Assembly (NCBI GenBank): GCA_963746185.1
Contig: CAVVAE010000003.1
Coordinates: 11,387-75,386 of the forward strand
Source of the DNA: an uncultured Actinomycetota bacterium
Lineage (GTDB): Bacteria; Actinomycetota; Actinomycetes; Propionibacteriales; Nocardioidaceae
Length of the DNA stretch: 64,000 nt
Reading direction: 5' to 3'
The notes under the pieces were generated by a model. The model did no database searches. It worked only from the letters and a program-made list of their open reading frames with translations, and was not told where the DNA came from. Shown one piece after another: positions 1 to 64,000 of the stretch (position 1 is its first letter; each line of letters starts with the position of its first letter). The position numbers and the translations under genes are program-made.

Positions 1-225
1 CGAGACTGAACTTCTCCAGCACGCGCGCTCCGCGCCCGCATCCCCATCGCTGCTGCGGGAAGTGGGATCGCGCATCAGCGGCGCCAGTGCCGCGACCAGC
101 GCATCGGCGTCGCCGGGTGGCGTCAGCACGCCGGTGACGCCGTCCTCGACCACGAATTCGGCCGCCCCCGCCCGCGACGCCACCAAAGCCGCGCCTGATG
201 ACATCGCCTCGATCAGCGTACGGCG
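1..225 (-). pseudogene. C-terminal fragment of a GT4-like glycosyltransferase; runs off the left edge and the 5' part is absent
   Basis: Minus-strand translation from 225 downward reads RRTLIEAMSSGAALVASRAGAAEFVVEDGVTGVLTPPGDADALVAALAPLMRDP, the conserved C-terminal sugar-nucleotide block of GT-B/GT4 enzymes. An in-frame TGA at 226-228 lies directly upstream, about 30 nt from the stop of the neighbouring gene, so a normal N-terminal half cannot be encoded here. Confidence 0.45.
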
Positions 226-255
226 TCAGTTCGTGGGAGCCCGACTCTGGCGGAC

Positions 256-1734
256 TCAGCCGGCGAGGTGGAGGAACGAGCCGACCCGAGACAGTCCCCG
301 TCCGAGCCTGCTCACAGACGACGACTCGGGTGGCGCCGTATGGGGCAGCGCCGCGACCAGGTCGGCCGTCGTACTCGGTGGTGCATCGGTGAGCACGGTG
401 TAGATCGTGCTGCCGGACTGCCACACGGCCATCGTGGGCAGCCCCTCCTTCACCCAGATCGAGCCGCCGTCTGACGTGATGCGGTCGAAGCCTGGCAACG
501 CCGCGTCATCGAGCTGACCGTGCTCCTCGAACACCGAGACCGTGGAGAGTCCGTCGGAGTACGCCGCATGCATGACGTCGCGCTTGCCGTCGAGCCGGTG
601 CAGCAGGGTGAGGTGGAAATCGCTGGGCAGTGTTTGCGGACACGCCCAACCTTTGTCGGTCAACGTCGCAGCGAACTCAGTGGAGACCGGTGTCGCGGAG
701 GGGGCCTCGAACTCAGGGGGCAGGTGCGGGATGAAACCTTTGCGGGTGGTCTGCAACGACGTCAGGTCGCTCGACCTGACCAGGGCCCCACCGTCGTACA
801 GCTCGCGGCGAAGCAGCATGCCGCTGGCATCGTCGATCCAGAAATTCGCCGTGACGTCTCCGTCGCGGGACGCCGAGATCACGGTGGCTTGCCGACCGGC
901 AAGGTTGTCATGACCGACGACGGCGACATCGTAGGAGTCGATCAGCAGGTCAACCGGTTGTCCGCCGAGGCCACTGGCGCCCGAGGACTCGCGGGCGGCG
1001 ACAAAAGTCGCCGTTGGGCTATCGGGGTCGCTCGTCGCGAAGCTGGTGCCCTGACGCGGGGAGTGCTCGACCTCGAGCGTGACACTTGACTCGCCTTGCG
1101 GTCCAAACCAGCTCACTCGTCGGGTCCCGGAGTAGGCCACCCGGGCTGGGGCGGTCGCGGCTTGGTGAAGCAGGCGTACGGCGCGTCGGTCGTCGCCAGT
1201 GGCGCCGTGCGAACCTGTCGCCGTCAGGGACCTGCCGACCTGTGCAGCGAACGGCGGGCCCGACCGGCTGGAGTTGCGGGTCGTGGTCACCTTGGTCGCT
1301 ATCGCCTCGACGGCGGGGTCTGACAGTCCGGCAGCTCCGGTACTGCCCGCGAACTCCGCGGAGAACTCCTCGATCGGTGGGGCCACCTGGTGCTCCGGCT
1401 CCTGAGGTGCGCCGACCGCGTACGCGAGCGTGAGAACCGCAAGGGACACCGATCCGGCACCGACCAGGGCTCGCCGGGCGGCAACCGTGGTCCAGGGTGA
1501 GGACGTGACACCACCACTGGTGGGTGCCGGCCGGACAGCTCCCAGCGTGGCGAACAGGTCAGCGGGGGGCTCAGCGGCGGCCAGGCCGAGCAGCCGCTGT
1601 TTGAGCGCGTAAGTCTGTTCGAGCTCTTGCTGGCAAACCGCGCAAGCCCGGGCGTGGGCGATTGCTCGCTTGCGCGCCCGACCCTGGAGCTCGCCGTCGA
1701 TGAGGGCTGACACCTTGTGGTGGAGGTGGCTCAT
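256..1734 (-). CDS. Anti-sigma-E factor: zinc-finger anti-sigma N-terminus, one TM segment, large MucB/RseB-like extracytoplasmic domain
   Basis: 492-aa ORF. The N-terminus [12 protein letters not shown]...[12 protein letters not shown] fits the H-x3-C-x2-C anti-sigma motif. A hydrophobic segment ([13 protein letters not shown]) follows, and the C-terminal 300 aa look MucB/RseB-like. Its ATG (1732-1734) overlaps the sigE stop (1731-1733). Confidence 0.75.
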
Positions 1735-2318
1735 CGCGTGCCCCCGACATGGCTCGGGTCGACGGCACCCCCGAATCGAGTACGTGATGCAGTGGGCGCC
1801 CGATGGGCGAGCGCTTTACGAAGCATGGAGCGGCCGCGGTGGATGCGTGAGCGCACCGTGCCGATCTTGACGTCGAGGACGGCGGCGATCTCGTCGTAGG
1901 TCAACCCCTCGACGTCGCACAGGACCACGGCGACACGGAAGTCCGGTTGCAGCTCAGCGAGGGCGACTTCGATGTCACCGTCGAACGACTGGTCGTCGAA
2001 TCCGGCCGCAGGCGAGGGCAGAAAACCTGCCAGCTTGTCGCCGACGTCGTCAGGCAGTGAGTCGAATCGGATGCGCTGGCGGCGACGGGCCTGGTCGAGG
2101 AAGAGGTTGGTGGTGATCCGGTGCAGCCAGCCTTCGAACGTGCCTGGCTGGTAGGACGACAGTGAGCGGAAGACCCGCACGAAGACCTCTTGGGTCAAGT
2201 CCTCGGCGTCGTAGCGGTTGCCGGTGAGGCGGTAGGCGAGGCGATAGACGCGTGCCGAGTGCAGCCGGACGATTTCGTCCCAGCTGGGGGGGTCCCACTC
2301 CTCGGCAGACCGGTCCAT
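1731..2318 (-). CDS. sigE: ECF RNA polymerase sigma factor SigE
   Basis: The blocks [59 protein letters not shown] and [25 protein letters not shown] are near-identical to those I recall in mycobacterial SigE. The maximal ORF extends to 2483. The ATG at 2316-2318 is preceded by GAGGAGG and is preferred. Confidence 0.9.
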
Positions 2319-5984: not shown

Positions 5985-6863
5985 GTGCCCGATACGTGCG
6001 GCAGACTGCTCGATGTGAATGCCCGGTCGGCCCTTTTTGACGTGTACGGCGACCACCTCCGGCCGCGAGGCGGAGCCGCTCCCGTGGCTGCGCTGGTCCG
6101 CATGCTCGCGCCCCTCGACATCGCCGCACCCGCTGTGCGGACCGCGATCTCCCGCATGGTGCAGCAGCAGTGGTTGGCAGCGGTCCGGCTCGATCAGGGG
6201 CCGGGCTACCGGCTCACCCCACGGGCCGAGCGCCGTCTCACCGACGCTGCCAACCGCATCTACCGCAGCGGCATCGCGCCGTGGGACCACCACTGGCACA
6301 TCCTCGTCATCGACCGCATGCCCAAGCGGGCATCGCGCGAGCGAGTACGCACCGGGCTCGGCTATCTCGGGTATGCCGTCTTGCGTGACGACACCTGGAT
6401 CAGCCCCCGGGCGTCCGGCGAGGTCGACGCCCTGTTGGAGCACGACGGGGTCCGGGCGCAACGGTTCTGGTCAGAGCACGACGGCGACGACGCCGCGCTC
6501 GCCGCCCAGGCCTGGGACCTCGACGGCCTCGGCCGTGCCTACGCCAGATGGCTCGACGAGGCCCGCGACCTGGTCCCAACCGTCCCGAGCGGCGATCCTC
6601 CCGAGACTTCCCGTGCTGCCGGGCCTCTCGACGGGCTCAGCGACCAGGACGCGTTCGTCGTACGCAGCCGACTGGTTCACGAGTGGCGCAAATTCCTGTT
6701 CCGCGACCCTGGACTGCCCCGAGAGCTGTTGCCGGATCAGTGGCCTGGCGACGATGCCGCCGCGTTCTTCGACACCGAGGCGGCTCGCCTGCTGCCAGCG
6801 GCCGGACGGTACGTTGATGCATGTCTGCGTCCGAACGGGACCACCCGAAACGGGTCTGCCTAG
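5985..6863 (+). CDS. PaaX family transcriptional regulator
   Basis: The N-terminal winged-helix block ALFDVYGDHLRPRGG...LVRMLAPLDIAAPAVRTAISRMV and the C-terminal block LVHEWRKFLFRDPGLPRELLP are typical of PaaX_N and PaaX_C. The start could instead be the GTG at 6015. Confidence 0.8.
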   Translation: MPDTCGRLLDVNARSALFDVYGDHLRPRGGAAPVAALVRMLAPLDIAAPAVRTAISRMVQQQWLAAVRLDQGPGYRLTPRAERRLTDAANRIYRSGIAPWDHHWHILVIDRMPKRASRERVRTGLGYLGYAVLRDDTWISPRASGEVDALLEHDGVRAQRFWSEHDGDDAALAAQAWDLDGLGRAYARWLDEARDLVPTVPSGDPPETSRAAGPLDGLSDQDAFVVRSRLVHEWRKFLFRDPGLPRELLPDQWPGDDAAAFFDTEAARLLPAAGRYVDACLRPNGTTRNGSA

Positions 6864-6908
6864 TCGACGCCCCGGCCGACGGAGTCCGATGCCGAGAGGG
6901 AGTGACCG

Positions 6909-7700
6909 ATGGGTGAACCGGTGAGGTACGACGTCGCCGACCACGTCGCGACGATCACGCTCGACCGCCCCGAGTCGATGAACAGCCTCGACACCGCGAC
7001 GAAGGACGCCCTCCTTGCCGCCATCGAGCGCGCCGGGTCCGATGACGAGGTCCGCTGCGTCGTCATCACCGGGACCGGCCGAGCATTCTGCGTCGGGCAG
7101 GATCTGCGCGAGCACATCACCAACATGACGACCCAGTCGCTCGAAGAGGTGTGGGCCACAGTCGACAAGCACTACTCGCCGATCGCGATGGGGATCGCGG
7201 GCATGCCGAAGCCGGTGATCGCGGCGATCAACGGCGTCGCGGCTGGCGCCGGACTATCGATCGCGATGGCCTGCGACCTGCGGATCAGCGCCGACTCAGC
7301 CGGTTTCAACACCGCCTTCACCGGAGTTGCTCTCTCGTGTGACACCGGCGCCTCGTGGACGCTGCCGCGGCTCGTCGGTCCGACCAAAGCGATGGAGCTC
7401 ATGCTCGTGCCGCGAACGCTCGACAGCCAGGAGGCCCTCGCACTCGGGCTGCTCAACCGCGTCGTACCGGCCGACGACCTGGCGAAGGAGGCCGCCACGC
7501 TGGCAGCCGAGTTGGCCGCCGGGCCGACGCTCGCCTACGCATCCGTGAAGCAGTCGGTCGCGTACGCCGCGATACATTCACTGGAGGACTCCCTGGCCTT
7601 CGAGAGTCAGATGATGGCTCGCACCGGCGGGTCCGAAGACCACCAGAATGCTGTGAAGTCGTTCGTCGCCAAGGAAAAGCCGACATTTGAAGGTCGATGA
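6909..7700 (+). CDS. Enoyl-CoA hydratase/isomerase (crotonase) family protein
   Basis: Crotonase motifs VVITGTGRAFCVGQDL and KPVIAAINGVAAGAGLSIAMACDLRI. Confidence 0.9.
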   Translation: MGEPVRYDVADHVATITLDRPESMNSLDTATKDALLAAIERAGSDDEVRCVVITGTGRAFCVGQDLREHITNMTTQSLEEVWATVDKHYSPIAMGIAGMPKPVIAAINGVAAGAGLSIAMACDLRISADSAGFNTAFTGVALSCDTGASWTLPRLVGPTKAMELMLVPRTLDSQEALALGLLNRVVPADDLAKEAATLAAELAAGPTLAYASVKQSVAYAAIHSLEDSLAFESQMMARTGGSEDHQNAVKSFVAKEKPTFEGR

Positions 7701-7701
7701 G

Positions 7702-8550
7702 ATGAAGCAACGCACCCTTGGAACCTCCACGAAGTACGCCGCAACCACATCAGCTGTCGCTCTCGTCCTGAGTCTCGCAGCGGAGCCGACATCGGTCGGG
7801 GCACCTGCGCTGGACGATGAGGGTACGACGTCGGGGTCAACCGCGACCGCCGCGTCGGTCACGGCGAAGGCGGGTCGCTCTCTGGCCAGCAGGGTTGGAG
7901 CACCCCGGCGGGTACATCAACTCATCACGGTCAGTGCGAGCAGCTGGTCGTCGACGCATGCCACGCTCAAAGCCTGGCGCCGCGCGGCAAGCGGCCGCTG
8001 GACTCTTGCGCATCGGCCGATCTCGGTGATCGTCGGCTACAACGGCTGGGTCAAGGCTCGCGACCGTCGCCAGTCGACAGGGACGACTCCGGCAGGACGC
8101 TTCGAGCTGCCCTACGCGTTCGGGCGGTTGTCCGACCCGGGTGCTCACCTGCGCTACCGCGACTTCGACCGGAGCGAGTGGTGGCCCTATGAGCCGCGAG
8201 ACAAGGCGACGTACAACGTCTGGCAGTGGCACAAGGCGCCCCGGACGCATTGGCGCAGCGACTACTCCGAACATCTCTGGGACTACGCCGGCCAGTACGC
8301 CTATGGCCTGGTCGTCGGGTTCAACCTGCCGAAGGGCGTCCACTACTCGTCGCAGCGGCGTCAGTGGGTGGCGCGTAATACGGCCGACACTTCGCGGGGT
8401 GGGGGGATCTTCCTTCACGTGCGGGGTGATGGGCTAACGGCCGGCTGTGTCGCGATGGATCGCCGCCAGGTGCGCTGGTTGATCCGCTGGCTGCGTCCCA
8501 AGGCCAATCCGCAGGTTGTCATGGGACCCTACCGCTACATCTCGCGCTGA
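7702..8550 (+). CDS. Secreted L,D-transpeptidase (YkuD) family protein
   Basis: N-terminal signal-like segment KYAATTSAVALVLSLAA, plus the catalytic block GGGIFLHVRGDGLTAGCVAM (His...Cys of YkuD). The ATG at 7702 lies just after the upstream stop; the ORF also opens at 7687. Confidence 0.8.
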   Translation: MKQRTLGTSTKYAATTSAVALVLSLAAEPTSVGAPALDDEGTTSGSTATAASVTAKAGRSLASRVGAPRRVHQLITVSASSWSSTHATLKAWRRAASGRWTLAHRPISVIVGYNGWVKARDRRQSTGTTPAGRFELPYAFGRLSDPGAHLRYRDFDRSEWWPYEPRDKATYNVWQWHKAPRTHWRSDYSEHLWDYAGQYAYGLVVGFNLPKGVHYSSQRRQWVARNTADTSRGGGIFLHVRGDGLTAGCVAMDRRQVRWLIRWLRPKANPQVVMGPYRYISR

Positions 8551-8701
8551 TCCACGACGTCGTCGAAGGGCCTCGGTCGGTCGCTCTCGACGGGCTCTTG
8601 CGCCTGCGCTTCGCGCTTTGACGGCGCTCCGAGTCCCGCCCTCCGGCGCCCATCCGGCTCGTCCTCTCCCTGGTCGGCTAGCGCTGTTGATGGGGGTTGG
8701 G

Positions 8702-9517
8702 CTAGAAGTGGCCGCCGATGGCGCGGACGAGGCCACGAGCGGCTCGGCCCTGCAGGTAGTGCTGGCTCGGATGCGGGCCGAACTCGACGGTGACGCAAGC
8801 CCCGTCGTGCCGCCGGTTGAACCACTGCGTCAGGGTCCCGTGGCAGGCACCCGAGCAGTCGAACTCCCTGGTCGGCAGACGCAGATACCGCGCCAGCCGC
8901 TGAGCGAACGGCCGGTCCTTCGCGCCGTACACATCGATGCCGCGCAGCGGGGAGTGCATCGTCACGACGTAATCGGGATCGACCCGGTCGAGGAAGTGCT
9001 TGAGTCTGCGGGTCTCGGGCTCAGAGTTCGGCCGCGGCCCAGACTCGACCGTGCCGTTGAGCCGCTTCCATTTCACCGGGAAGTTGCGGTTGAGGTCGAC
9101 GCCATGCGCATTCTTGCGCTGATGACGCAGTACGCCGTCCACGTTGTCGCGCGGGATCGCCCACAGGTGCACGCCCTTGATCGGCCGACCGTGGATCAGC
9201 GTGCTGAGCACGATCGAGCCTTCGGTCTCATCGCCATGCATCGCCCCGATCGCGACGACAGTCTTGCTGGCGCCGCGACTGCCCAGTTCGAACGCGCGGA
9301 TCGGATGACGCTTGACCGAGTACCCGATGATGCGGCGGGAGATGACCGCGTCGGATCGAGCCTGCGCCATGGAGCCGGCCGCCGTCTGTATCGGGTCGGC
9401 CGTCTGCGCAGGGCGAGGCGATACGGCGTACAACGGTCCTGTCGCCGCTAGCCCACCGATGATCAGGGCGGTGAGCCCGACTCGGCCGAGCCGACGCAGA
9501 GCAGGTGGTGCGGTCAT
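8702..9517 (-). CDS. Secreted M14 zinc carboxypeptidase-like peptidase (murein peptide amidase / gamma-D-Glu-DAP peptidase type)
   Basis: Motifs IGAMHGDETEG, HGVDLNRNFP and EPETRRL...VVTMHSP, with a signal-like N-terminus RRLGRVGLTALIIGGLAA. The ATG at 9515-9517 overlaps the tag stop at 9514-9516 (ATGA). Confidence 0.8.
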   Translation of the reverse strand: MTAPPALRRLGRVGLTALIIGGLAATGPLYAVSPRPAQTADPIQTAAGSMAQARSDAVISRRIIGYSVKRHPIRAFELGSRGASKTVVAIGAMHGDETEGSIVLSTLIHGRPIKGVHLWAIPRDNVDGVLRHQRKNAHGVDLNRNFPVKWKRLNGTVESGPRPNSEPETRRLKHFLDRVDPDYVVTMHSPLRGIDVYGAKDRPFAQRLARYLRLPTREFDCSGACHGTLTQWFNRRHDGACVTVEFGPHPSQHYLQGRAARGLVRAIGGHF

Positions 9518-10095
9518 GTGCGGATCCTTTCCCGTGCCCAACAGTCAGCCAGGTGGTCGTTGACGAGTCCGGCGGCCTGCATCAGGGCGTATGCGGTGGT
9601 CGGCCCCACGAAGGTGAAGCCGCGACGTTTGAGTTCCTTGGCGAGTGCTTTCGACTCCGGCGTCTGGCTCGGTACGTCGGCGAGTGTCTTCGGCGCCGGC
9701 GCGGGCGGCGGGGCGAATGCCCAGATGAGCTCGGTGAGTGACTCGTCGAGGGCGGCGGCAGCGCGCGCATTGGTGAGAGCGGCGTCGATCTTGCCGCGGT
9801 GACGAACGATTCCCGCGTCCGCGAGCAACCTCTCCCGGTCGGTTTCGTCGAAGCCCGCCACTGTCGAGACATCGAAGTCCGCGAACGCAGCTCGGAAGTT
9901 GTCTCGCTTACGCAAGATCGTCAGCCACGACAGGCCCGACTGGAATCCCTCGAGGGTGAGCCGCTCGTAGAGCCCGTTGTCGTCACGAATCGGCTGGCCC
10001 CACTCCGCGTCGTGGTACGTGAGGTAGTCAGGCGTGGACAAGCCCCACGGGCATCGCAGTTCGCCGTCGGGGCCGAGCTGCGCATCGGACGTCAT
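9514..10095 (-). CDS. tag: DNA-3-methyladenine glycosylase I
   Basis: CPWGLSTPDYLTYHDAEWGQP...LTLEGFQSGLSWLTILRKRDNFR is the canonical Tag block. Confidence 0.95.
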   Translation of the reverse strand: MTSDAQLGPDGELRCPWGLSTPDYLTYHDAEWGQPIRDDNGLYERLTLEGFQSGLSWLTILRKRDNFRAAFADFDVSTVAGFDETDRERLLADAGIVRHRGKIDAALTNARAAAALDESLTELIWAFAPPPAPAPKTLADVPSQTPESKALAKELKRRGFTFVGPTTAYALMQAAGLVNDHLADCWARERIRT

Positions 10096-10538
10096 CGGAC
10101 GTCGTCGCTGGTGGAGGCTGGCTGCTCCTCCACAGGTGGCGGTGTCTGGTCTCGGTCCACGACCACCGGGCGTTCGTCGTCGACCGCGTCAGCCGGGGAA
10201 TCGACCGGCCGGTCAGCGACAGCGTCTGCGTCTGCGGCCGCGACCTCACCGTCTGTGGGCTGGTCGCCCTGATGGCTGGACTCCTCGTGCCGCTCCCGGG
10301 CCATCAGGTCGGCTCGCATCCGGTCGATCAGCGCATCGACCTCGTCCATCCGGTAGCCGCGCAGTCCTGTGTTGAGGCGGACGGCGTCCAGGTCATCGGA
10401 GGTCAGCGGCCGCCCGGTGGGGATCCCACGGTCAGCACGGTCTTCATAGACCTCGCCCATCGCGTCGTCACGCCCGGCGGCGAGGATGGCCACCACTCCG
10501 AGCACCACGACGAGAACGACGACCCACAACCAGATCAC
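10092..10538 (-). CDS. DivIVA-domain-containing membrane protein
   Basis: N-terminal TM segment (IWLWVVVLVVVLGVVAILAA) followed by the DivIVA N-domain signature LNTGLRGYRMDEVDALIDRM. Its stop overlaps the tag start. Confidence 0.75.
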   Translation of the reverse strand: MIWLWVVVLVVVLGVVAILAAGRDDAMGEVYEDRADRGIPTGRPLTSDDLDAVRLNTGLRGYRMDEVDALIDRMRADLMARERHEESSHQGDQPTDGEVAAADADAVADRPVDSPADAVDDERPVVVDRDQTPPPVEEQPASTSDDVR

Positions 10539-10594
10539 GAGACAGATCGTGCCACGCTTGGACCGAAACGGTGGTAATCGGGTGAGGAGCGGAC

Positions 10595-11458
10595 GTGTCG
10601 ATGGTGCTGGGACGACGTGACTTCGGCGATGCCGAGGTCGCCGTCATGGCGATCGTCAACCGCACGCCCGACTCGTTCTACGACAAGGGCGCGACCTACG
10701 CCGAAGGTGCCGCGCTCGACCGGGTGGCCGAGGTCGTCGCCGAGGGCGCTGACGTCGTCGACATCGGTGGCGTGAAGGCCGGCTACGGCGACGACGTCGA
10801 TGTGGCGGAGGAGCTACGCCGGACGGCGTCCTTCGTCGACGCGGTCAAAGCGTCGTACCCCGACCTGGTGATCAGCGTCGACACCTGGCGCGCCGAGGTC
10901 GCGCGGGAGTTGGCCCAGCGCGGCGCCGACATCCTCAACGACACCTGGGCGGGAGCCGATCCAGAGGTGGCGGAGGTGGCGGCCGAGTTCGGCGTCGGGC
11001 TCGTGTGCAGCCACACCGGCGGGCTCGGGCCACGCACCGACCCACACCGCGTCGAGTACGACGACGTGGTGGCCGACGTGATCACCACCGTGACGGGACT
11101 GGCGGAGCGGGCAGTGAGCCTGGGCGTCGACCGGCGGCACATCCTCGTCGACCCGACTCACGACTTCGGGAAGAACACCCGGCATTCGCTCGAGCTGACC
11201 CGACGTCTCGACGAACTGGTGGCCACCGGCTGGCCCGTGCTCGTCGCGCTGTCGAACAAGGACTTCGTTGGGGAGACACTCGATGTGTCGACCGAGTTGC
11301 GGCTCACCGGGACGCTGGCCGCCACCGCCATCTCGGCGTGGCACGGGGCACGGGTGTTCCGCGCGCACCAGGTGGCTGAGACGCGGCAGGTACTCGACAT
11401 GGTGGCCTCGATCGCCGGGCGACGCCCTCCAGCGCGAGCTACCCGCGGCCTCGCCTAG
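10595..11458 (+). CDS. folP: Dihydropteroate synthase
   Basis: MAIVNRTPDSFYDKG, DVVDIGG, ILNDTWAG and LVALSNKDF are pterin-binding DHPS motifs. Confidence 0.93.
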   Translation: MSMVLGRRDFGDAEVAVMAIVNRTPDSFYDKGATYAEGAALDRVAEVVAEGADVVDIGGVKAGYGDDVDVAEELRRTASFVDAVKASYPDLVISVDTWRAEVARELAQRGADILNDTWAGADPEVAEVAAEFGVGLVCSHTGGLGPRTDPHRVEYDDVVADVITTVTGLAERAVSLGVDRRHILVDPTHDFGKNTRHSLELTRRLDELVATGWPVLVALSNKDFVGETLDVSTELRLTGTLAATAISAWHGARVFRAHQVAETRQVLDMVASIAGRRPPARATRGLA

Positions 11459-11466
11459 CCGTTGAC

Positions 11467-11539
11467 CCGTCACTTGTGGTTGCGCGAGCCGTCACTTGTG
11501 GTTGCGCGAGCCGTCACCTGTGGTTGCGCGAGCCGTCAT
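11467..11539 (+). repeat. Tandem array of three 22-nt units plus a 7-nt partial unit (CCGTCACTTGTGGTTGCGCGAG)
   Basis: Units at 11467-11488 and 11489-11510 are identical. The unit at 11511-11532 has one substitution. The partial unit CCGTCAT (11533-11539) contains the ybaK stop codon (11536-11538). Confidence 0.95.
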
Positions 11540-12042
11540 CGGGCGATCGACGCTGTCGTCCCGTTCGTGACGCGAAGCAACTCACCGGGTGAAAGCTCGA
11601 CGTCGACGCCGCGTTTGCCAGCTGACACCAGGATCGTGTCGTACGACGTCGCGGACTCGTCGAGCACCACCGGCAACGGCGTACGTCCACCCAGTGGCGA
11701 GATGCCACCGACCACGGATCCGCTGACGCGTTCGGCAACTTCGGGAGGTGCCATCGCGACCTGCTTCTCGCCCAAGACCTGCGCCGCCGCCTTCAGGTCG
11801 AGCTGACCGGACACGGGTACGACGCAGAGCACATACCGCCGCCCCGCCTCGACCATCAGAGTCTTGAAGACACGCTCGGGTTCGACCCCGAGCGCTAGCG
11901 CTGCCTCGGCTCCATACCCGACGGCACTGCTGACGGCATCGCCGTGTTCATAGGTGCGCACGGTGTGCTCCACGTCGGCCTCGACGAGGCGAGTGAGCCC
12001 GCGGCGTAGCCGCTGACCGCTTCTTCTTCGCCACCTAGCCAT
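11536..12042 (-). CDS. ybaK: Cys-tRNA(Pro)/Cys-tRNA(Cys) deacylase, YbaK/EbsC family
   Basis: The blocks ERVFKTLMVEA, VLCVVPVSGQLDLKAAA, GGISPLG and VVLDES...DTILVSAGKRG are YbaK-like. The internal ATG at 12040-12042 is preferred, because the ORF upstream of it is translation of the repeat array. Confidence 0.85.
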   Translation of the reverse strand: MARWRRRSGQRLRRGLTRLVEADVEHTVRTYEHGDAVSSAVGYGAEAALALGVEPERVFKTLMVEAGRRYVLCVVPVSGQLDLKAAAQVLGEKQVAMAPPEVAERVSGSVVGGISPLGGRTPLPVVLDESATSYDTILVSAGKRGVDVELSPGELLRVTNGTTASIAR

Positions 12043-12071
12043 CCTGGCACTGCGCGCGTCATCACTGCCGG

Positions 12072-12138
12072 GTCGCGCAACCACAAATGACGGGTCGCGC
12101 AACCACAAACTGACGGGTCGCGCAACCACAACTGACGG
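12072..12138 (-). repeat. Tandem array of three 22/23-nt units, reverse complement of the 11467-11539 array
   Basis: GTCGCGCAACCACAAATGACGG (12072-12093), GTCGCGCAACCACAAACTGACGG (12094-12116) and GTCGCGCAACCACAACTGACGG (12117-12138). The reverse complement of the first matches the left-array unit at 20 of 22 positions. Confidence 0.95.
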
Positions 12139-12145
12139 GTGAAGT

Positions 12146-12949
12146 TTATTCGGAGCGGTGGGGTTCGACGTGAGGTTGGCCGCCCGGGCCTATCGTCGCT
12201 TCGCGTTCGTGCCGCGCTGCCACCATGATCGCGACCGCTTCGTCGATGTCGTCAGTCAGCCGCAGCAGGTCGAGGTCCTTCTCGCTCACCTTGCCGCCCT
12301 CGAGGACGACGGCACGGATCCATTCAACGAGCCCGCCCCAGTACTTCGTACCGAGCAACACGATCGGGAACGACGTCACCTTCTGGGTCTGCACAAGCGT
12401 GACGGCCTCGAAGATTTCGTCGAACGTGCCGAACCCACCGGGCAGGGCGATGAAGCCTTGCGCGTACTTCACGAACATCGTCTTGCGAGCGAAGAAGTAG
12501 CGGAAGTTGATGCCGATGTTGACCCACTCGTTGATGCCAGACTCGAAGGGCAGCTCGATCCCGAGCCCGACCGACAGCCCACCTGACTGCGAGGCGCCGC
12601 GGTTCGCGGCCTCCATCGCTCCGGGTCCACCTCCGGTGATGACCGCGAATCCCGAGCCCACCAAGGCGGCACCGAGTGCGATCGCCTGTTCGTAGTCAGC
12701 ATCGCCGGGCTTGCTCCGTGCGGAACCGAAGACCGAGATGGCCGGACCGAGCTCGGCCAGCGCGCCGAATCCCTCGACGAACTCCGCCTGGATCCGCAGC
12801 ACCCGCCAGGGATCGGTGTGCACCCAGTCGGTCGGTCCGCGCGAGTCGAGCAAGCGTTGGTCGGTCGTCGAGCTCTGCACCTGCTCACGACGCATGACAA
12901 CAGGGCCACGCCGCTGCTCCCGTTGCCTCGATGGCTGCTGATCAGTCAT
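12146..12949 (-). CDS. LOG family protein (TIGR00730-type nucleotide 5'-monophosphate nucleosidase)
   Basis: Motifs VITGGGPGAMEAANRGA and ALPGGFGTFDEIFEAVTLVQT (PGGxGTxxE). Confidence 0.9.
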   Translation of the reverse strand: MTDQQPSRQREQRRGPVVMRREQVQSSTTDQRLLDSRGPTDWVHTDPWRVLRIQAEFVEGFGALAELGPAISVFGSARSKPGDADYEQAIALGAALVGSGFAVITGGGPGAMEAANRGASQSGGLSVGLGIELPFESGINEWVNIGINFRYFFARKTMFVKYAQGFIALPGGFGTFDEIFEAVTLVQTQKVTSFPIVLLGTKYWGGLVEWIRAVVLEGGKVSEKDLDLLRLTDDIDEAVAIMVAARHEREATIGPGGQPHVEPHRSE

Positions 12950-13034
12950 GCGTCCAACCTATCGGGAGGAACGACCCGGAACTCCCGTGTGCACATATCT
13001 GCACCGACTGTCACCGTGGCGCTGGTCCGTTCGT

Positions 13035-14111
13035 TCAACCTGACGAGGAGAGCCAAGCCGTCATTTGCTCGAGACAGGTGTGCAAGTGGGCCAGCGGCAC
13101 GTGCTCTCCCTGGGTGTGCGCCAGCTCAGGATTTCCTGGTCCGAAGTTGACCGCCGGGATACCCATCGCGCTGAACCGCGCCACATCTGTCCAGCCGAAC
13201 TTCGGGTTCGCCGCACCACCCACGACCGCGAGGAAGGCTGCGGCGGCGGGCAGCGTCAGACCCGGCAGTGCTCCGGGCGCGGAGTCGCGCACCACCACGT
13301 CGAACCCCTCGAACACTTCCCGCAGATGCGCTTCGGCCTCGTCGACTCCACGGTCGGGTGCGAACCGGTGGTTGATCGTCACCGTGCACGAGTCTGGCAA
13401 GACGTTGCCCGCGACCCCTCCACTGATGCCGACGGCGTTGAGTCCCTCGTGGTACTTGAGGCCGTCGATCACCGGACGCCGAGGCTCGTACGACGTGAGA
13501 CGAGCCAGCACCTCCCCGGCGGCGTGGATCGCGTTGACCCCGTTCCACCAGCGGGCGGAGTGTGCGCGAACGCCGCGCGTCGTGACATCGATCCGCATCG
13601 TGCCTTGGCAGCCCGCCTCGATGACAGCGTTGGACGGTTCCATCACCACAGCGAAGTCACCAGCCAGCATCTCCTCGCGCACAGCAGCGATCAACGTGAG
13701 TCCGTTGCGCTCCGCCTCGACCTCCTCCGCTTCGTAGAACACGTAGGTCAGGTCTCGGTTGGGCTGGTCCAGCGTCGCGGCCAACTTCAGCGCCACCGCG
13801 ACACCGCCCTTCATGTCGCACGACCCAAGTCCGTGCAGCGCGTCACCCTCGACCCGAGCCGGCAGGTTGTCGTTGACTGGGACGGTGTCGACATGACCAG
13901 CCACCACGACACGCTCAGGACGTCCGAGCGTCGTACGCGCGACCAACGAGTTCTGATGGCGCCACAGCTCCAACCACGGCACGTCGGCCAGCACGCTTTC
14001 GATCTCGTCACTGATGGTCTTCTCGTTGCCGCTGACGGACTCGATGTCGACCAGTGCGGCAGTCAGATCGACGATGTCGGCATGCGGATCCAGAGACGTC
14101 ATGGCCGCCAT
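13035..14111 (-). CDS. dapE: Succinyl-diaminopimelate desuccinylase
   Basis: M20 peptidase motifs VVVAGHVDTVP and GLGSCDMKGG, adjacent to dapD. The start was chosen at the ATG at 14109-14111 (MAAMTSLD); 14102 is also possible. Confidence 0.88.
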   Translation of the reverse strand: MAAMTSLDPHADIVDLTAALVDIESVSGNEKTISDEIESVLADVPWLELWRHQNSLVARTTLGRPERVVVAGHVDTVPVNDNLPARVEGDALHGLGSCDMKGGVAVALKLAATLDQPNRDLTYVFYEAEEVEAERNGLTLIAAVREEMLAGDFAVVMEPSNAVIEAGCQGTMRIDVTTRGVRAHSARWWNGVNAIHAAGEVLARLTSYEPRRPVIDGLKYHEGLNAVGISGGVAGNVLPDSCTVTINHRFAPDRGVDEAEAHLREVFEGFDVVVRDSAPGALPGLTLPAAAAFLAVVGGAANPKFGWTDVARFSAMGIPAVNFGPGNPELAHTQGEHVPLAHLHTCLEQMTAWLSSSG

Positions 14112-14136
14112 TGTGTCGAAGCCAGCCGCGGCCCCG

Positions 14137-14826
14137 TCACGCGTTCGACGTAAAGGCGCAGAACTCGTTGCCTTCGGGGTCGGCCATGATGTGCCAGCGA
14201 TCCTCCGGAGTCGGTTCGCGCAGCACGGTCGCACCGGCCGAGACGAGGTCGTCCACCGAGTCGACCGTGACGTCCCAGTGGATGCGGTTTTTTACCGTCT
14301 TCGGTTCGGGCACGGGCACGAAGTCCCACCCGTTGTAGGGCAGACCAGGCATGTCCTCGAGCCACCACCAGTCCTTGTCGGCCCGACCGTCGAGCTTCGC
14401 CCCCAGCACCTCAGCCCACCAACTCGCGACAGGCTTGGGATCGACGCAGTCGATCACCAGCTCGTGCAGCCGGTACGCCGGCAGGTCGTCAGGCGCGCGC
14501 ACGAACGCACAGAACTCACCGCCCTCAGGGTCGGCCATCACGGTCCAGGGACGGCCGTACTCCTCGGCAGGTTCGAGCACCTGGGCTCCCAGCTGGACGA
14601 GCTCGTCGATCGACCCGGCATGCACGTCGATATGCACCCGATGCTTCACGCTCTGAGCTTCGGGTACGACGTTCATCCAGACCTGTTGCTCGGGTTTGTC
14701 ACCGACAAGCGCGCCAGCCTCACCGTCAGGCTCGAAGCGCAGCCCGAGCGCGGCCGCCCAGAAGCGGCCGAGTTGCTCGGAGTCACTGGAGTCGATGCAG
14801 AGGTCCTTGTAATGCGCGATCGCCAT
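14137..14826 (-). CDS. VOC/glyoxalase-like two-domain protein
   Basis: Two internally similar halves (HRVHIDVHAGSIDELV...ADPEGGEFCAF and NRIHWDVTVDSVDDLV...ADPEGNEFCAF), typical of duplicated glyoxalase-like folds. Confidence 0.7.
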   Translation of the reverse strand: MAIAHYKDLCIDSSDSEQLGRFWAAALGLRFEPDGEAGALVGDKPEQQVWMNVVPEAQSVKHRVHIDVHAGSIDELVQLGAQVLEPAEEYGRPWTVMADPEGGEFCAFVRAPDDLPAYRLHELVIDCVDPKPVASWWAEVLGAKLDGRADKDWWWLEDMPGLPYNGWDFVPVPEPKTVKNRIHWDVTVDSVDDLVSAGATVLREPTPEDRWHIMADPEGNEFCAFTSNA

Positions 14827-14929
14827 CCGGCGAACCTAGCGACCCACGCCGACAGGCGCATTCGTATTTCTCGGGCGCAAACGCGAGGGGGAACGAGGGA
14901 GGTCTTTTCGCACTGGGTAGCGTTGTGGG

Positions 14930-15871
14930 GTGACCGCCACCGACACGTCAGCCTGGGGCTTCGGCCTGGCCACTCACGACGTCGCTGGCAACGTTCTCGA
15001 CGTCTGGTACCCCGAGCCTGCCCTCGGCCAGGCGCCCGATGACTACCACTCACCGAGCGGCCTGGCCTCACTGGAAGGTCACGACCCGGTGCGCGAAGTC
15101 TCCCGCTCCGTCGTCCACGTCGCCATCGACGACCTGGCAGCGCCGCCGCGTGAGACCGTCGACGTCTGGCTTCGGCTGCACCTGTTGAGCCACCGGCTGG
15201 TCCAGCCGCACGGTCAAAACCTCGACGGAATCTTCGGCCTGCTCACCAACGTCGTCTGGACGACGCTCGGACCCTGCGCCGTCGACGGTTTCGAGCAGAC
15301 CAGGCTCCGAGCCTTCGAGGCCGACAAGAGCATCCAGGTGTTCGGCGTCGACAAGTTCCCGCGGATGGTCGACTACGTCGTCCCGAGCGGGGTGCGGATC
15401 GGGGATGCCGACCGGGTGCGCCTGGGCGCGCATCTCGCGGTGGGCACCACCGTGATGCACGAAGGTTTCGTGAACTTCAACGCCGGCACCCTGGGCAGCT
15501 CAATGATCGAAGGGCGCATCTCAGCCGGTGTGGTCGTCGGTGACCATTCGGACGTGGGTGGCGGCGCGTCGGTCATGGGCACGCTGTCAGGCGGCGGCAC
15601 CGAGGTCATCTCCATCGGGCAGCGTTGCCTGCTCGGCGCCAACGCCGGCGTGGGGATCTCGCTCGGCGACGACTGTGTCGTTGCCGCCGGGTGCTACGTC
15701 ACCGCTGGCACCAAGCTGACGCTGCCGGACGGCTCCATCGTCAAGGCGCGCACACTCTCCGGCGAGTCAGGCTGGCAGTTCTGGCAGAACAGCCTGACCG
15801 GGGCTGTCGAGGCGGTGCGGCGCGACGGTTCGGGTGTGGAGCTCAACGCTGCGCTGCATACGAACTCATAG
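14930..15871 (+). CDS. dapD: 2,3,4,5-tetrahydropyridine-2,6-dicarboxylate N-succinyltransferase
   Basis: Actinobacterial DapD length. Left-handed beta-helix hexapeptide region ([35 protein letters not shown]...[19 protein letters not shown]). Divergent from dapE. Confidence 0.88.
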
Positions 15872-59203: not shown

Positions 59204-59749
59204 TCACGGCGTGATGCGGAACAGCTCGAGTTCGGTCTGGTAGTACCGCGTCGTCCGTCCGAGTTCTTCCATGCCGAGCCGGCGGCACACCGCGATCGAG
59301 GGCGCGTTGTCCGGGCGAACGACCGCGAAGATCTCGTCGAGGCCGTGCTCGAAGCCCCAACTGAGAGCGCCTTTCGCCGACTCCGACGCCAACCCTTGCC
59401 CCCAGGAGTCGGGGTGGAAGTGCCAACCGACCTCGAACTCGCCGTCTCCATCGGGCAGCGGCACCAAGATGACCGTGCCGACGAGAAGGCCGTCGCTCTT
59501 ACGCTCCACCGCCCAGCGACCAGCGACCGGCTCCTCGCGGTTGATCTCACCCCACCTGTCGACCAGGCCTTGCGCCTGCTCGAGTGTCTCCATCGCCTTG
59601 GGCTGTGCGCCGAGCCACCGCGCCACCTCCCAACGCGAGTAGAGGTCGAGCACTCGGTCGACGTCACTGTCACGCCAATTGCGCAACCGACAACGGTCGG
59701 TCTCGAAGGCCACATCGCTGGGACCAGTCGCCTCGGCGTTCTCACTCAC
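59204..59749 (-). CDS. GNAT family N-acetyltransferase (RimJ/RimL-like)
   Basis: TDRCRLRNW...D...L..LY, the WAVERKSDGLLVGTVIL block, and QGLASESAKGALSWGFE (acetyl-CoA pocket). Confidence 0.85.
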   Translation of the reverse strand: MSENAEATGPSDVAFETDRCRLRNWRDSDVDRVLDLYSRWEVARWLGAQPKAMETLEQAQGLVDRWGEINREEPVAGRWAVERKSDGLLVGTVILVPLPDGDGEFEVGWHFHPDSWGQGLASESAKGALSWGFEHGLDEIFAVVRPDNAPSIAVCRRLGMEELGRTTRYYQTELELFRITP

Positions 59750-59769: not shown

Positions 59770-60690
59770 TCAGCCACTGGGTATGGCGGCGAAGGCGCGG
59801 ACCGGAAACGTCCCGAAGTTTGCGACCTTCGGCGGTACGGCGAAGAAGCGGGCACCGCGCGGCGGCACCGCCTCGAGGCCCGTGAGGTGTTCCGCGATCG
59901 GGATGCCGGCGTCGAGCAGAATCGTGTGCGCTGGCCGGGTCTGGTCGGTCATGTCGTCGATGTTGGCGGCGTCGATTCCCACCAGTGCTGCACCTTGCTC
60001 GACCAGCCAACCGGCCCCGTCCCGCGTCAGGAAGGAGGCGTCTTCGACGTACGCCGGCGTCCCGAATCGCTCGCAGTCACCCGTCTCGAGCAGCACGGCC
60101 ATGCCACGTACGTCGTACGCCGCCAGGGCTTCGACTCCGATGCCTCCCGCAGGGGCGTCGCGCAGCTTCACGACGACTGCTGGTACGTCGGCGAGACTGT
60201 CGAGACTGAGTCCGGACAGGTCGACACCGCCCGCGAATCGATGATGCGGCGAATCGACGTACGTCCCCGTGTTGGCCACCATCGAGATCCGCCCGATCTC
60301 GAACGTCGTCCCCGGCGCGTAGACCTTCACTGCGGCTTCGCGCGAGAGGTGTGGGGTGATCTCCGGACCAGGCAGACCAGGCAGTGTCACCATGCCAGCG
60401 GTGATCACGTGGCTCAAGTCGACGAGTTGGGTCGCCGAATCGCCGGCGGCCATCGCCTGCGGCTGCCTCGGGCCGCCGCGGGTTCCCTTGTGAGCCTCTT
60501 CGACCATGACGACAGAGTCGAGACGTACGTCGGTGGCAGCGATCAGTCCGAGCGCGGCGACCAAGAGCGACTCGATCTCCTGATGCGCGACGTCAGTACC
60601 AGGGACGTCAAGGCGGAACCCCTGCACCTGGATCCCGCCACCGTTGGAGAAGGAGATGGCTGCATCCACAATCGCTCGGTGATCGGTCAT
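59770..60690 (-). CDS. Cyclase family protein (kynurenine formamidase-like) with an N-terminal extension of about 85 aa
   Basis: Cyclase motif NTGTYVDSPHHRF (HxGTHxDxPxH-like), LVDLSHVI and GIDAANID. The first 85 aa match nothing I recognise. Confidence 0.78.
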   Translation of the reverse strand: MTDHRAIVDAAISFSNGGGIQVQGFRLDVPGTDVAHQEIESLLVAALGLIAATDVRLDSVVMVEEAHKGTRGGPRQPQAMAAGDSATQLVDLSHVITAGMVTLPGLPGPEITPHLSREAAVKVYAPGTTFEIGRISMVANTGTYVDSPHHRFAGGVDLSGLSLDSLADVPAVVVKLRDAPAGGIGVEALAAYDVRGMAVLLETGDCERFGTPAYVEDASFLTRDGAGWLVEQGAALVGIDAANIDDMTDQTRPAHTILLDAGIPIAEHLTGLEAVPPRGARFFAVPPKVANFGTFPVRAFAAIPSG

Positions 60691-60925
60691 GGCGCCATGA
60701 TGGCGGCTGCGCCATGCACACCGTGAGAGGGAAGCCTGCCGTCAACCCGCGAATTCCCGCCCCACTTCTTCAGCCGACTGCCTCAGTGGGCTGCCTCAGA
60801 GGGTTTCGGCGGAGATGCCGTACCGAAGGGCGTCCTCGTAGCACTGGCTGCCCAATGAGCTACCAGCACACGACAGCACGCTTACCTACCGTGTTTTGTC
60901 GGCACTGCCTGTCATCGTCGTTCCT

Positions 60926-61659
60926 ATGAGCGCAACAACTTTCGTCATCGCCCTCCTGACCCTGGTAGCCGGTCTCGCCATCGGCGTGGTCATCGGTCAG
61001 CGATCAGCCACTCGCTCGCGCGATGACCTGCGCGCCGAACTTCGGATGCTCTCGGCTCAGGCCGTGACGGAGTCGAGCGACCGGGTATACGCCATGGCCG
61101 GTTCGGGTCTACGAGCGACCGAGCAGGTCGTCAAGCCGGTGCGTGAAAGCCTTGACCGGCTCAACGACCGGATCAACACGTTGCAGAGTGAGGGTGCGTC
61201 GTGGCAGTCGCAGCTCAAGCAGCAGGTCGATTCCGTGCACCTCAGTGGCGTTGAACTGCGCCAGCAGACCCAAGCCCTGGCTGAGGCGCTGCGCCGACCG
61301 CAAGTCCGCGGCATGTGGGGCGAGATGCAGCTCCGTCGTAGCCTCGAGCTGTCCGGGTTGACGGGACGCTGCACCTTCGACGAGCAGGTCACCCGCCAGA
61401 CCGACGACGGATTGCTCCGTCCTGATGTGGTCGTCAACCTGACGGGCGGCAAGCATGTCGTCATCGACTCGAAGGTGCCGCTCGATGCCTTCCTGTCAGC
61501 CACCCACGCGACCGGTGATCAACGCGATGCCGCTCTGGTGCGGCATGCGAAACAGGTTCGCGGCCACGTCGATGCGCTGTCGTCCAAGTCGTACTGGGCG
61601 CAGTTCTCGCCAGCTCCGGAGTTCGTGGTGATGTTCATGCCCGGAGAGGCGATCTTTGC

Positions 61660-61660
<1 letters not shown>
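60926..61660 (+). pseudogene. rmuC: DNA recombination protein RmuC, 3'-truncated (N-terminal 245 aa only)
   Basis: N-terminal TM (TTFVIALLTLVAGLAIGVVIG), coiled-coil region, then RPQVRGMWGEMQLRRSLELSG, PDVVVNLTGGKHVVIDSKVPL and FVVMFMPGEAIFA. The RmuC-like sequence stops abruptly at about 61660 and the reading frame runs into antisense liv sequence. Confidence 0.8.
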
Positions 61661-63134
<1,474 letters not shown>

Positions 63135-63135
<1 letters not shown>

Positions 63136-64000
63136 CAGCCGTGGCCCTCCCCGACGAGATCGGCCCGTACGGCGCGCCGCTGCTTCAGGAAGATCGACGG
63201 CATGCGCGTGGAGATCACGCCGCGCGGCTTCCAGATCATCACCAGCACCATGGCCAGCCCGAAAATCAGCATGCGGTAGTGCGTCGGCTCGAAATCGCGG
63301 CCCGAAGATCTGCTTCATCCATTCGAGCTCGCGCAGCAACTCGGTGCCGCCGATCAGGACGACGGCGGCGATGGCGACGCCGACCTGGCTGCCCATGCCG
63401 CCCAGCACGACGATGGCCAGGATCAGCGCGCTCTCCATGAACGTGAAGATCTCCGGCGTGACGAAGCCCTGGCCGCGCGGCGAAGAACGCGCCGGCAAAC
63501 CCGCCGAACATGGCGCCGAGCGCGAACGCGGTGAGCTTGGTGTTGGTGGTGTTGATGCCGAGCGAGCGGCAGGCGGTCTCGTCCTCGCGCAGCGCTTCCC
63601 AGGCGCGGCCTACGGGCAGGCGGCGCAGGCGCAGCGTCACCCAGTTGGTCAGCGCGGCGAGGCCGAGGATCACGTAGAAGAGAAAGATCGTGCGGTGGAC
63701 GGGGCGAACTCGAGGCCGAAGAAGGCGGCGAAGCCCTCGTCGCTGTCGTCGAACGGCAGGCCGAAGAAGCGTCGCGCGCGGCACGCCGGAAATGCCGGCA
63801 TAGCCGCGGGTGAGGTCGACCCAGTTGATCAGCACGAGGCGGATGATCTCGCCGAATGCCAGCGTGACGATGGCCAGATAGTCGCCGCGCAGCCGCAGCA
63901 CCGGAAAGCCGAGCAGGACGCCCCAGAAGGCCGCCAGGATGCCGGCCAGCGGCAGGCAGACCCAGAAGCCGAGGCTCGTAGTGCTGCGCCAGCAGCGCGA
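63135..64000 (-). pseudogene. livM: LivM-like ABC transporter permease gene, partial (runs off the right edge) and frameshifted
   Basis: GFWVCLPLAGILAAFWGVLLGFPVLRLRGDYLAIVTLAFGEIIRLVLINW, TFFGLPFDDSDEGF, IFLFYVILGLAALTNWV...[74 protein letters not shown] and [26 protein letters not shown]...GEGHG-stop require at least 4 frame changes. The TGA (63135-63137) overlaps the livG ATG. Confidence 0.75.

Follow-up and report, generated by a model that had tools for sequence, protein, structure and literature searches.

Chimeric or concatemer long reads arise by ligation or in silico in nanopore or PacBio libraries. The locus described here resembles such reads, as they are generally known, in that several unrelated fragments of 2-7 kb are strung together head to tail and meet within genes at blunt junctions lacking homology. 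It also resembles them in its read-level indels and in a total length of ~19-21 kb, although in the present case these properties are known from assembled sequence. A genomic island offers a second comparison, because at this locus taxonomy and oligonucleotide composition switch abruptly at a sharp boundary inside a host gene. Unlike an island, however, the foreign DNA lacks an integrase, a tRNA target, direct repeats, and a second boundary. It consists of frameshifted housekeeping genes from several phyla, and the same assembly also contains the target gene in uninterrupted form.

Contigs that fuse DNA of different species and yet pass marker-gene quality control are a recognized problem of metagenome-assembled genomes (MAGs), as set out in a survey (bioRxiv 10.64898/2026.10.15.759294). 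The present case is like the chimeras described there in that a contig with foreign sequence joined into it belongs to a genome that passes such quality control. The surveyed chimeras come from short-read MEGAHIT assemblies (10.64898/2026.10.15.759294), whereas the indels, tail sums of ~20 kb, and imperfectly overlapping contig ends found here point to a long-read assembly. A further difference from the chimeras covered there is that two contigs sharing a 1.8-kb block carry reciprocal "crossed tails" at this locus.

The window, the whole stretch of DNA that was analyzed, comprises 64,000 nt and corresponds to C3:11387-75386 in an assembly of five contigs (C1-C5; 3.80 Mb, 66% GC). Marker-gene quality control describes the genome as 96.09% complete and 0.96% contaminated. 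Near the right end of the window, rmuC meets a livF-like gene. Judged from the sequence, this joint is almost certainly a metagenome assembly artefact, an inter-organism chimera rather than a biological rearrangement.

Position and anatomy of the joint

The features at the joint and to its right are as follows.

60926..61664, plus strand: rmuC 5' fragment, codons 1-246 of 398 plus one base; Pfam PF02646
61664..61665, between C3:73050 and C3:73051: putative chimeric joint; identity with C4 ends at 61664
61665..62229, minus strand: livF-like ABC ATPase fragment without ~50 C-terminal codons; 2 frameshifts, near 61903 and 62036
62236..63135, minus strand: livG-like ABC ATPase; 4 frameshifts, near 62320, 62813, 62874-62904, and 62972
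63135..64000, minus strand: 3' part of a livM-like permease that runs past the window; 4-5 frameshifts

The open reading frame that begins at the ATG at 60926 matches PF02646 only over profile positions 4-189/190 of 291. Its frame is RmuC-like up to 61663 and encodes meaningless sequence thereafter. On the opposite strand, the Pfam ABC_tran family matches the livF fragment in pieces only. The livF alignment spans residues 44-235 of a 285-residue stop-to-stop frame from Methylocapsa and residues 4-207 of a 258-residue frame from Neorhizobium. Because only part of each reference frame is covered, about 50 C-terminal residues are missing. An earlier, sequence-only reading of this DNA had described rmuC as cut mid-gene and fused tail-to-tail to a truncated livF, and the end of the Pfam match at 189/291, an intact 398-aa copy of rmuC on contig C4, and the two livF references bear it out for both genes.

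The position of the joint follows from two limits. Identity with C4 stops at 61664, and homology to 80 alphaproteobacterial livF loci starts at 61663-61665 at the earliest, never left of 61663; the joint therefore lies between 61664 and 61665. That both genes are cut at the same point had been proposed before, and the joint falls within 3-8 nt of that estimate. The TGA at 61660-61662, previously called fortuitous, is indeed formed by rmuC's own bases, being the reverse complement of TCA within its GCT CAG G. The truncated livF thus takes its stop codon from across the joint.

No meaningful repeat or hairpin was found at the joint, only short chance matches in GC-rich DNA, and no tRNA was found in the C3 tail, which extends from the joint to the contig end, or in its flanks. 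No Rfam family matched across the whole tail. An integrase, transposase, or IS end was likewise absent, the Pfam matches in ten tail ORFs being to metabolic and transport fragments. These results agree with the earlier statement that no repeat, hairpin, IS end, or att-like sequence marks the joint.

The shared block and an intact rmuC gene on C4

A Pfam search of the whole assembly revealed a second rmuC, ~3.3 kb from the end of C4. Comparison of C3 with the other contigs by blastn revealed a block of 1796/1796 identical positions that lies 2 kb from the C4 contig end. The features of the two contigs in this region are given below.

59204..59749, minus strand: GNAT acetyltransferase gene, present only on C3 and outside the shared block
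59770..60690, minus strand: cyclase-family gene, 306 aa on C3, ending ...FPVRAFAAIPSG at its stop codon; the C-terminus is legitimate
59869..61664 (C3:71255-73050): block of 1,796 bp shared by C3 and C4, 100% identical to the reverse complement of C4:1999831-2001626
C4:1999376-2000569, minus strand: full-length rmuC, 398 aa; Pfam match at C4:1999526-2000374, minus strand
C4:2001627-2003692: foreign tail of C4, 2,066 bp; matches Micromonospora at 94.1% nucleotide identity with eight one-base gaps

A base-by-base comparison of the contigs shows that matching falls to a random level on both sides of the block and that its edges are abrupt. At the right edge, C4 runs on as normal RmuC (...EAIFAQALETDPLLIDYAAGK..., 398 aa), whereas C3 jumps into livF. 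At the left edge, C3 has the normal cyclase C-terminus followed by the GNAT gene, whereas C4 enters junk: its copy of the cyclase reads through the edge into foreign sequence and extends to 404 aa. C3 is therefore "right" to the left of the block and "wrong" to its right, and C4 the reverse.

Relatives provide an independent view of the expected gene order. An rmuC match was obtained in 19 of 20 relatives, each of the 19 having a single copy. The RmuC proteins of the same family (~398 aa) align to the C4 copy essentially over their full length, and those of more distant relatives align over most of it. The truncation is accordingly upheld, since none of the same-family proteins ends naturally at the joint. 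For synteny, ~19 kb around rmuC from five same-family genomes was compared by tblastx with three queries: a join of C3:60000-73050 with the reverse complement of C4:1987000-1999830, the actual C3, and the actual C4. In three genomes (G001, G003, and G005), GNAT and rmuC have the relative placement seen on C3, and the C4 genes follow in colinear order over >12 kb. A cyclase homologue lies between GNAT and rmuC in G003 and G005; no cyclase match was seen in G001, where GNAT is directly beside rmuC. The foreign tails of C3 and C4 gave chance-level HSPs only when compared with the rmuC loci of the relatives. GNAT occurs only on C3, and in three relatives it is colinear with rmuC and the C4 genes; the true path therefore leads on from the C3 core to C4. 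In the chromosome, C3 up to 73050 adjoins the reverse complement of C4 up to 1999830, which gives the order GNAT, cyclase, rmuC, C4 genes.

Neither form of the locus was recovered from other metagenomes. A 31-mer taken from the rmuC side had no exact match in the metagenome contigs scanned, whether to the chimeric or to the intact form, and among the encoding contigs searched there was no record of the chimeric 420-aa ORF or of the intact 398-aa RmuC.

Foreign DNA at the contig ends

The C3 tail, from the joint to the contig end, measures 15,426 bp (C3:73051-88476) and is made up of pieces of different origin. Tail positions 1 to ~6,600 carry livF-livG-livM-livH, followed by SoxZ/CDGSH-like, SoxY-like, and FccB-like genes; the SoxY-like gene was identified by eye, with no Pfam family matching it. 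The piece with the liv operon is colinear with loci of alphaproteobacterial MAGs over 6.6 kb at ~77% nucleotide identity. Its best matches share 75-85% amino acid identity and belong to Alphaproteobacteria, mostly Hyphomicrobiales, and the best 80 livG loci all come from Alphaproteobacteria or from unclassified Proteobacteria/Pseudomonadota MAGs. No reference genome matched this piece at >85% nucleotide identity, which places the donor at the level of class or order. Tail positions ~6,800-10,750 (C3:79850-83800) form a piece of ~4 kb with a GC content of 46-49%. It encodes tandem FtsX/MacB-type permeases whose nearest relatives, at no more than 67% amino acid identity, are in Chitinophagaceae and other Bacteroidota. 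The remainder, ~10,800-15,426, has a GC content of 65-67% and contains fragments of a 2-oxoacid dehydrogenase E2, an ABC transporter, and an FAD oxidoreductase. The idea that the foreign tails are error-ridden copies of other parts of the same genome, as would result from an intra-genome chimeric read, was rejected, as blastn at word size 11 found no such copy. A separate suggestion that the low-GC piece is rRNA was also rejected, since Rfam gave no matches in the whole tail.

Composition changes at the joint together with taxonomy. The 3.8 kb to the left of the joint has a tetranucleotide r of 0.975 with the genome, whereas the four pieces of the tail give 0.87, 0.87, -0.05, and 0.89, all below the 1st percentile. 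Only 1 of 141 genome chunks scores below the three higher tail values, and none of the 141 scores below the piece at -0.05. The sequence-only reading had proposed that taxonomic origin and tetranucleotide profile be compared between the two sides. Both differ, the left being colinear with actinobacteria of the same family and the right being alphaproteobacterial and Chitinophagaceae-like.

The reading frames of the tail are disrupted throughout. When protein references from two isolates, Methylocapsa sp. S129 and a Neorhizobium, are aligned to the DNA by a frameshift-aware method, they reveal 10-11 frameshifts in the 2,336 nt of window 61665-64000, or ~1 per 220 nt, and the sites agree between the two references. 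Those in livM lie near 63297, 63472, 63702, 63769, and possibly 63980. Frame switches in livF, livG, and livM are also apparent by eye in a three-frame translation. Farther along the tail, the frame switches at least 3 times in livH and at least 6 times in one of the Chitinophagaceae-like permease genes. A GC3 frame HMM indicated ~16 frame switches in 3.9 kb of high-GC3 liv genes, a figure of qualitative use only, given that the model called host genes mostly "non-coding" because its emission parameters misfit the host's weaker GC3 contrast. On the host side, alignment to a relative by the frameshift-aware method gives 0 internal frameshifts in the true frames of rmuC, the cyclase gene, and the GNAT gene; only true frames were used, as spurious antisense ORFs, read from stop to stop in the high-GC reference, confound part of this control. 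The single RmuC "shift" in the control alignment, at ~60919, is upstream of the start codon. A 2,959-aa ORF in the ORF listing left of the joint is also uninterrupted. Overall, the foreign tails keep about one single-base indel per 220-260 nt. The shifts in window 61665-64000 are errors of sequencing or polishing, the tail being foreign and low in coverage, and not host pseudogenization.

The C4 tail is the counterpart of the C3 tail at the other edge of the block. Its match to Micromonospora runs from end to end and begins within 2 nt of the block edge. It has a GC content of 73-74% and a tetranucleotide r of 0.87, and it encodes a frameshifted molybdopterin-oxidoreductase-like gene that is attached mid-gene to the host cyclase.

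A similar arrangement is found at the other end of the window, where the parts of C3 are as follows.

1..218: last 218 nt of the foreign head of C3 (C3:1-11604), not host genome
219..61664 (C3:11605-73050): genuine C3 core, Nocardioidaceae genome, with blocks common to C2 and C4 at its ends

The core is supported by the blocks shared with C2 and C4, by a host-typical tetranucleotide profile (r with the genome, 0.975-0.977), and by synteny with relatives. The head of 11.6 kb has a tetranucleotide r of 0.85-0.89, below the 1st percentile, and contains an HldD fragment that is 99% identical in amino acid sequence to Bradyrhizobium. C3 diverges abruptly from C2 between window positions 218 and 219, which constitutes a second chimeric joint. 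From there, window 219-2272 (C3:11605-13658) is 99.76% identical to C2:903819-905871, again with abrupt edges, and the true path probably leads from C2 up to 905871 into C3 from 13659 onward. The last 7.4 kb of C2 (C2:905872-913248), with a GC content of 69-74% and a tetranucleotide r of 0.90-0.92, is probably another foreign tail.

Two side observations concern these segments. Window 219-2272 carries anti-sigma and SigE-like genes. Within the head, C3:7537-8580 is one stop-free frame that combines the N-terminal half of HldD (ADP-heptose epimerase) with alpha/beta-hydrolase-like sequence (...GFERFAVAGHDRGG...); this fusion may reflect either another chimeric joint inside the foreign head or a frameshift there.

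Overlaps between the remaining contig ends are imperfect. C5 (21,052 bp) shares 10.5 kb with the start of C4 at 99.1% identity and 12.6 kb with that of C1 at 93.5%, and C1:1-2055 is 95% identical to the reverse complement of C4:1-2044. C5 looks like a read-level or strain-variant bridge, and its two overlaps suggest the order C4 (reverse complement)-C5-C1. Imperfect overlaps of this kind point to an assembly of long reads in which the contig ends had weak support and little polishing.

Origin and meaning of the joint

The arrangement at the block suggests how the chimera may have formed. C3 consists of the true left flank, the block, and a foreign tail of 15.4 kb, and C4 of a Micromonospora tail of 2.07 kb, the block, and the true right flank, so that the two contigs are "crossed" over the sequence they share. 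The truncations of rmuC and livF are the juxtaposed ends of unrelated fragments, with no biological event having cut either gene. The indel rate resembles that of unpolished long reads at very low coverage, and the tails therefore probably derive from one or a few reads; at ~0.4%, the rate is below that of raw reads of older chemistries, such that some polishing or a newer chemistry must be assumed. The C4 tail, the block, and the C3 tail add up to 19.3 kb. On the basis of this geometry, we regard it as an even call whether a single chimeric concatemer read of ~19 kb crossed the chromosome path in the assembly graph. Such a read would comprise 2.1 kb of Micromonospora, 1.8 kb of the Nocardioidaceae genome, 6.7 kb of an alphaproteobacterium, 4 kb of a member of the Chitinophagaceae, and 4.6 kb of another high-GC organism. 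Its 1.8-kb host fragment might have been taken for a repeat in the assembly graph, with the resulting fork resolved crosswise. The block shared by C2 and C3 (window 219-2272) shows this crossed pattern again, and there the C3 head, the block, and the C2 tail add up to 21.0 kb.

The joint could instead have arisen after assembly, if binning, scaffolding, or submission had pasted short, unrelated contigs together without N spacers. The pieces of the C3 tail, at 4-7 kb each and from differing taxa, are typical in size of small metagenome contigs, and foreign DNA is present at both ends of C3. However, the genuine segment breaks off within a gene precisely at the edges of the blocks shared with C2 and C4, in the case of rmuC at the limit of the 1.8-kb overlap with C4, and each partner contig has a reciprocal tail of foreign DNA. 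Because reciprocal tails at shared blocks are what an assembly-graph fork leaves when it is resolved wrongly, concatenation, which had been listed earlier among the possible causes, is less likely than a graph or read chimera. Ns are also absent anywhere in the assembly. We consider post-assembly pasting highly unlikely.

A real molecule, generated by illegitimate recombination or by foreign DNA that entered rmuC horizontally, whether in the host or in a subpopulation of it, would be compatible with a clean joint at which both genes are cut at the same nucleotide and with the small change in GC content across it (0.65 to 0.69). Against this stands the intact rmuC in the same assembly, 100% identical up to the breakpoint. 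An insertion would also have to bring together DNA of Alphaproteobacteria, Chitinophagaceae, and a further source within 15 kb, with every gene frameshifted, and to do so with no integrase, tRNA, or repeats. There is no second boundary back to the host: the foreign DNA reaches the end of C3 with no right-hand junction into host sequence, and the remainder of rmuC is found only on C4. Furthermore, no insertion model predicts that C4 should carry Micromonospora DNA beyond the opposite edge of the block. Real recombination or foreign insertion, the biological option of the sequence-only reading, is thus left unsupported by the intact allele and the missing second boundary, and we judge it extremely improbable. 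That the chromosome of a minority subpopulation captured a degraded patchwork of Alphaproteobacteria and Bacteroidota DNA at a double-strand break in rmuC, with C4 representing the majority, is scarcely credible either.

The evidence accordingly favors an assembly chimera, the explanation that had been listed first, on the strength of the identical, intact rmuC on C4, synteny that continues into C4, and a frameshifted, multi-phylum tail that extends to the contig end. The joint is without biological significance, and its value lies in quality control, decontamination, and contig ordering. Gene calls and findings of "horizontal transfer", pseudogenes, or frameshifts in window 1-218 and 61665-64000 are to be discarded. 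Foreign DNA occupies C3:1-11604 and C3:73051-88476, ~27 kb of that 88-kb contig. It also makes up the final 2.07 kb of C4 and, probably, the final 7.4 kb of C2, despite the contamination of 0.96% given by quality control. For the genome of this uncultured member of the Nocardioidaceae, the corrected order is C2, the C3 core, and C4 (reverse complement), with C5 then suggested to bridge to C1, an order that could help genome closure.
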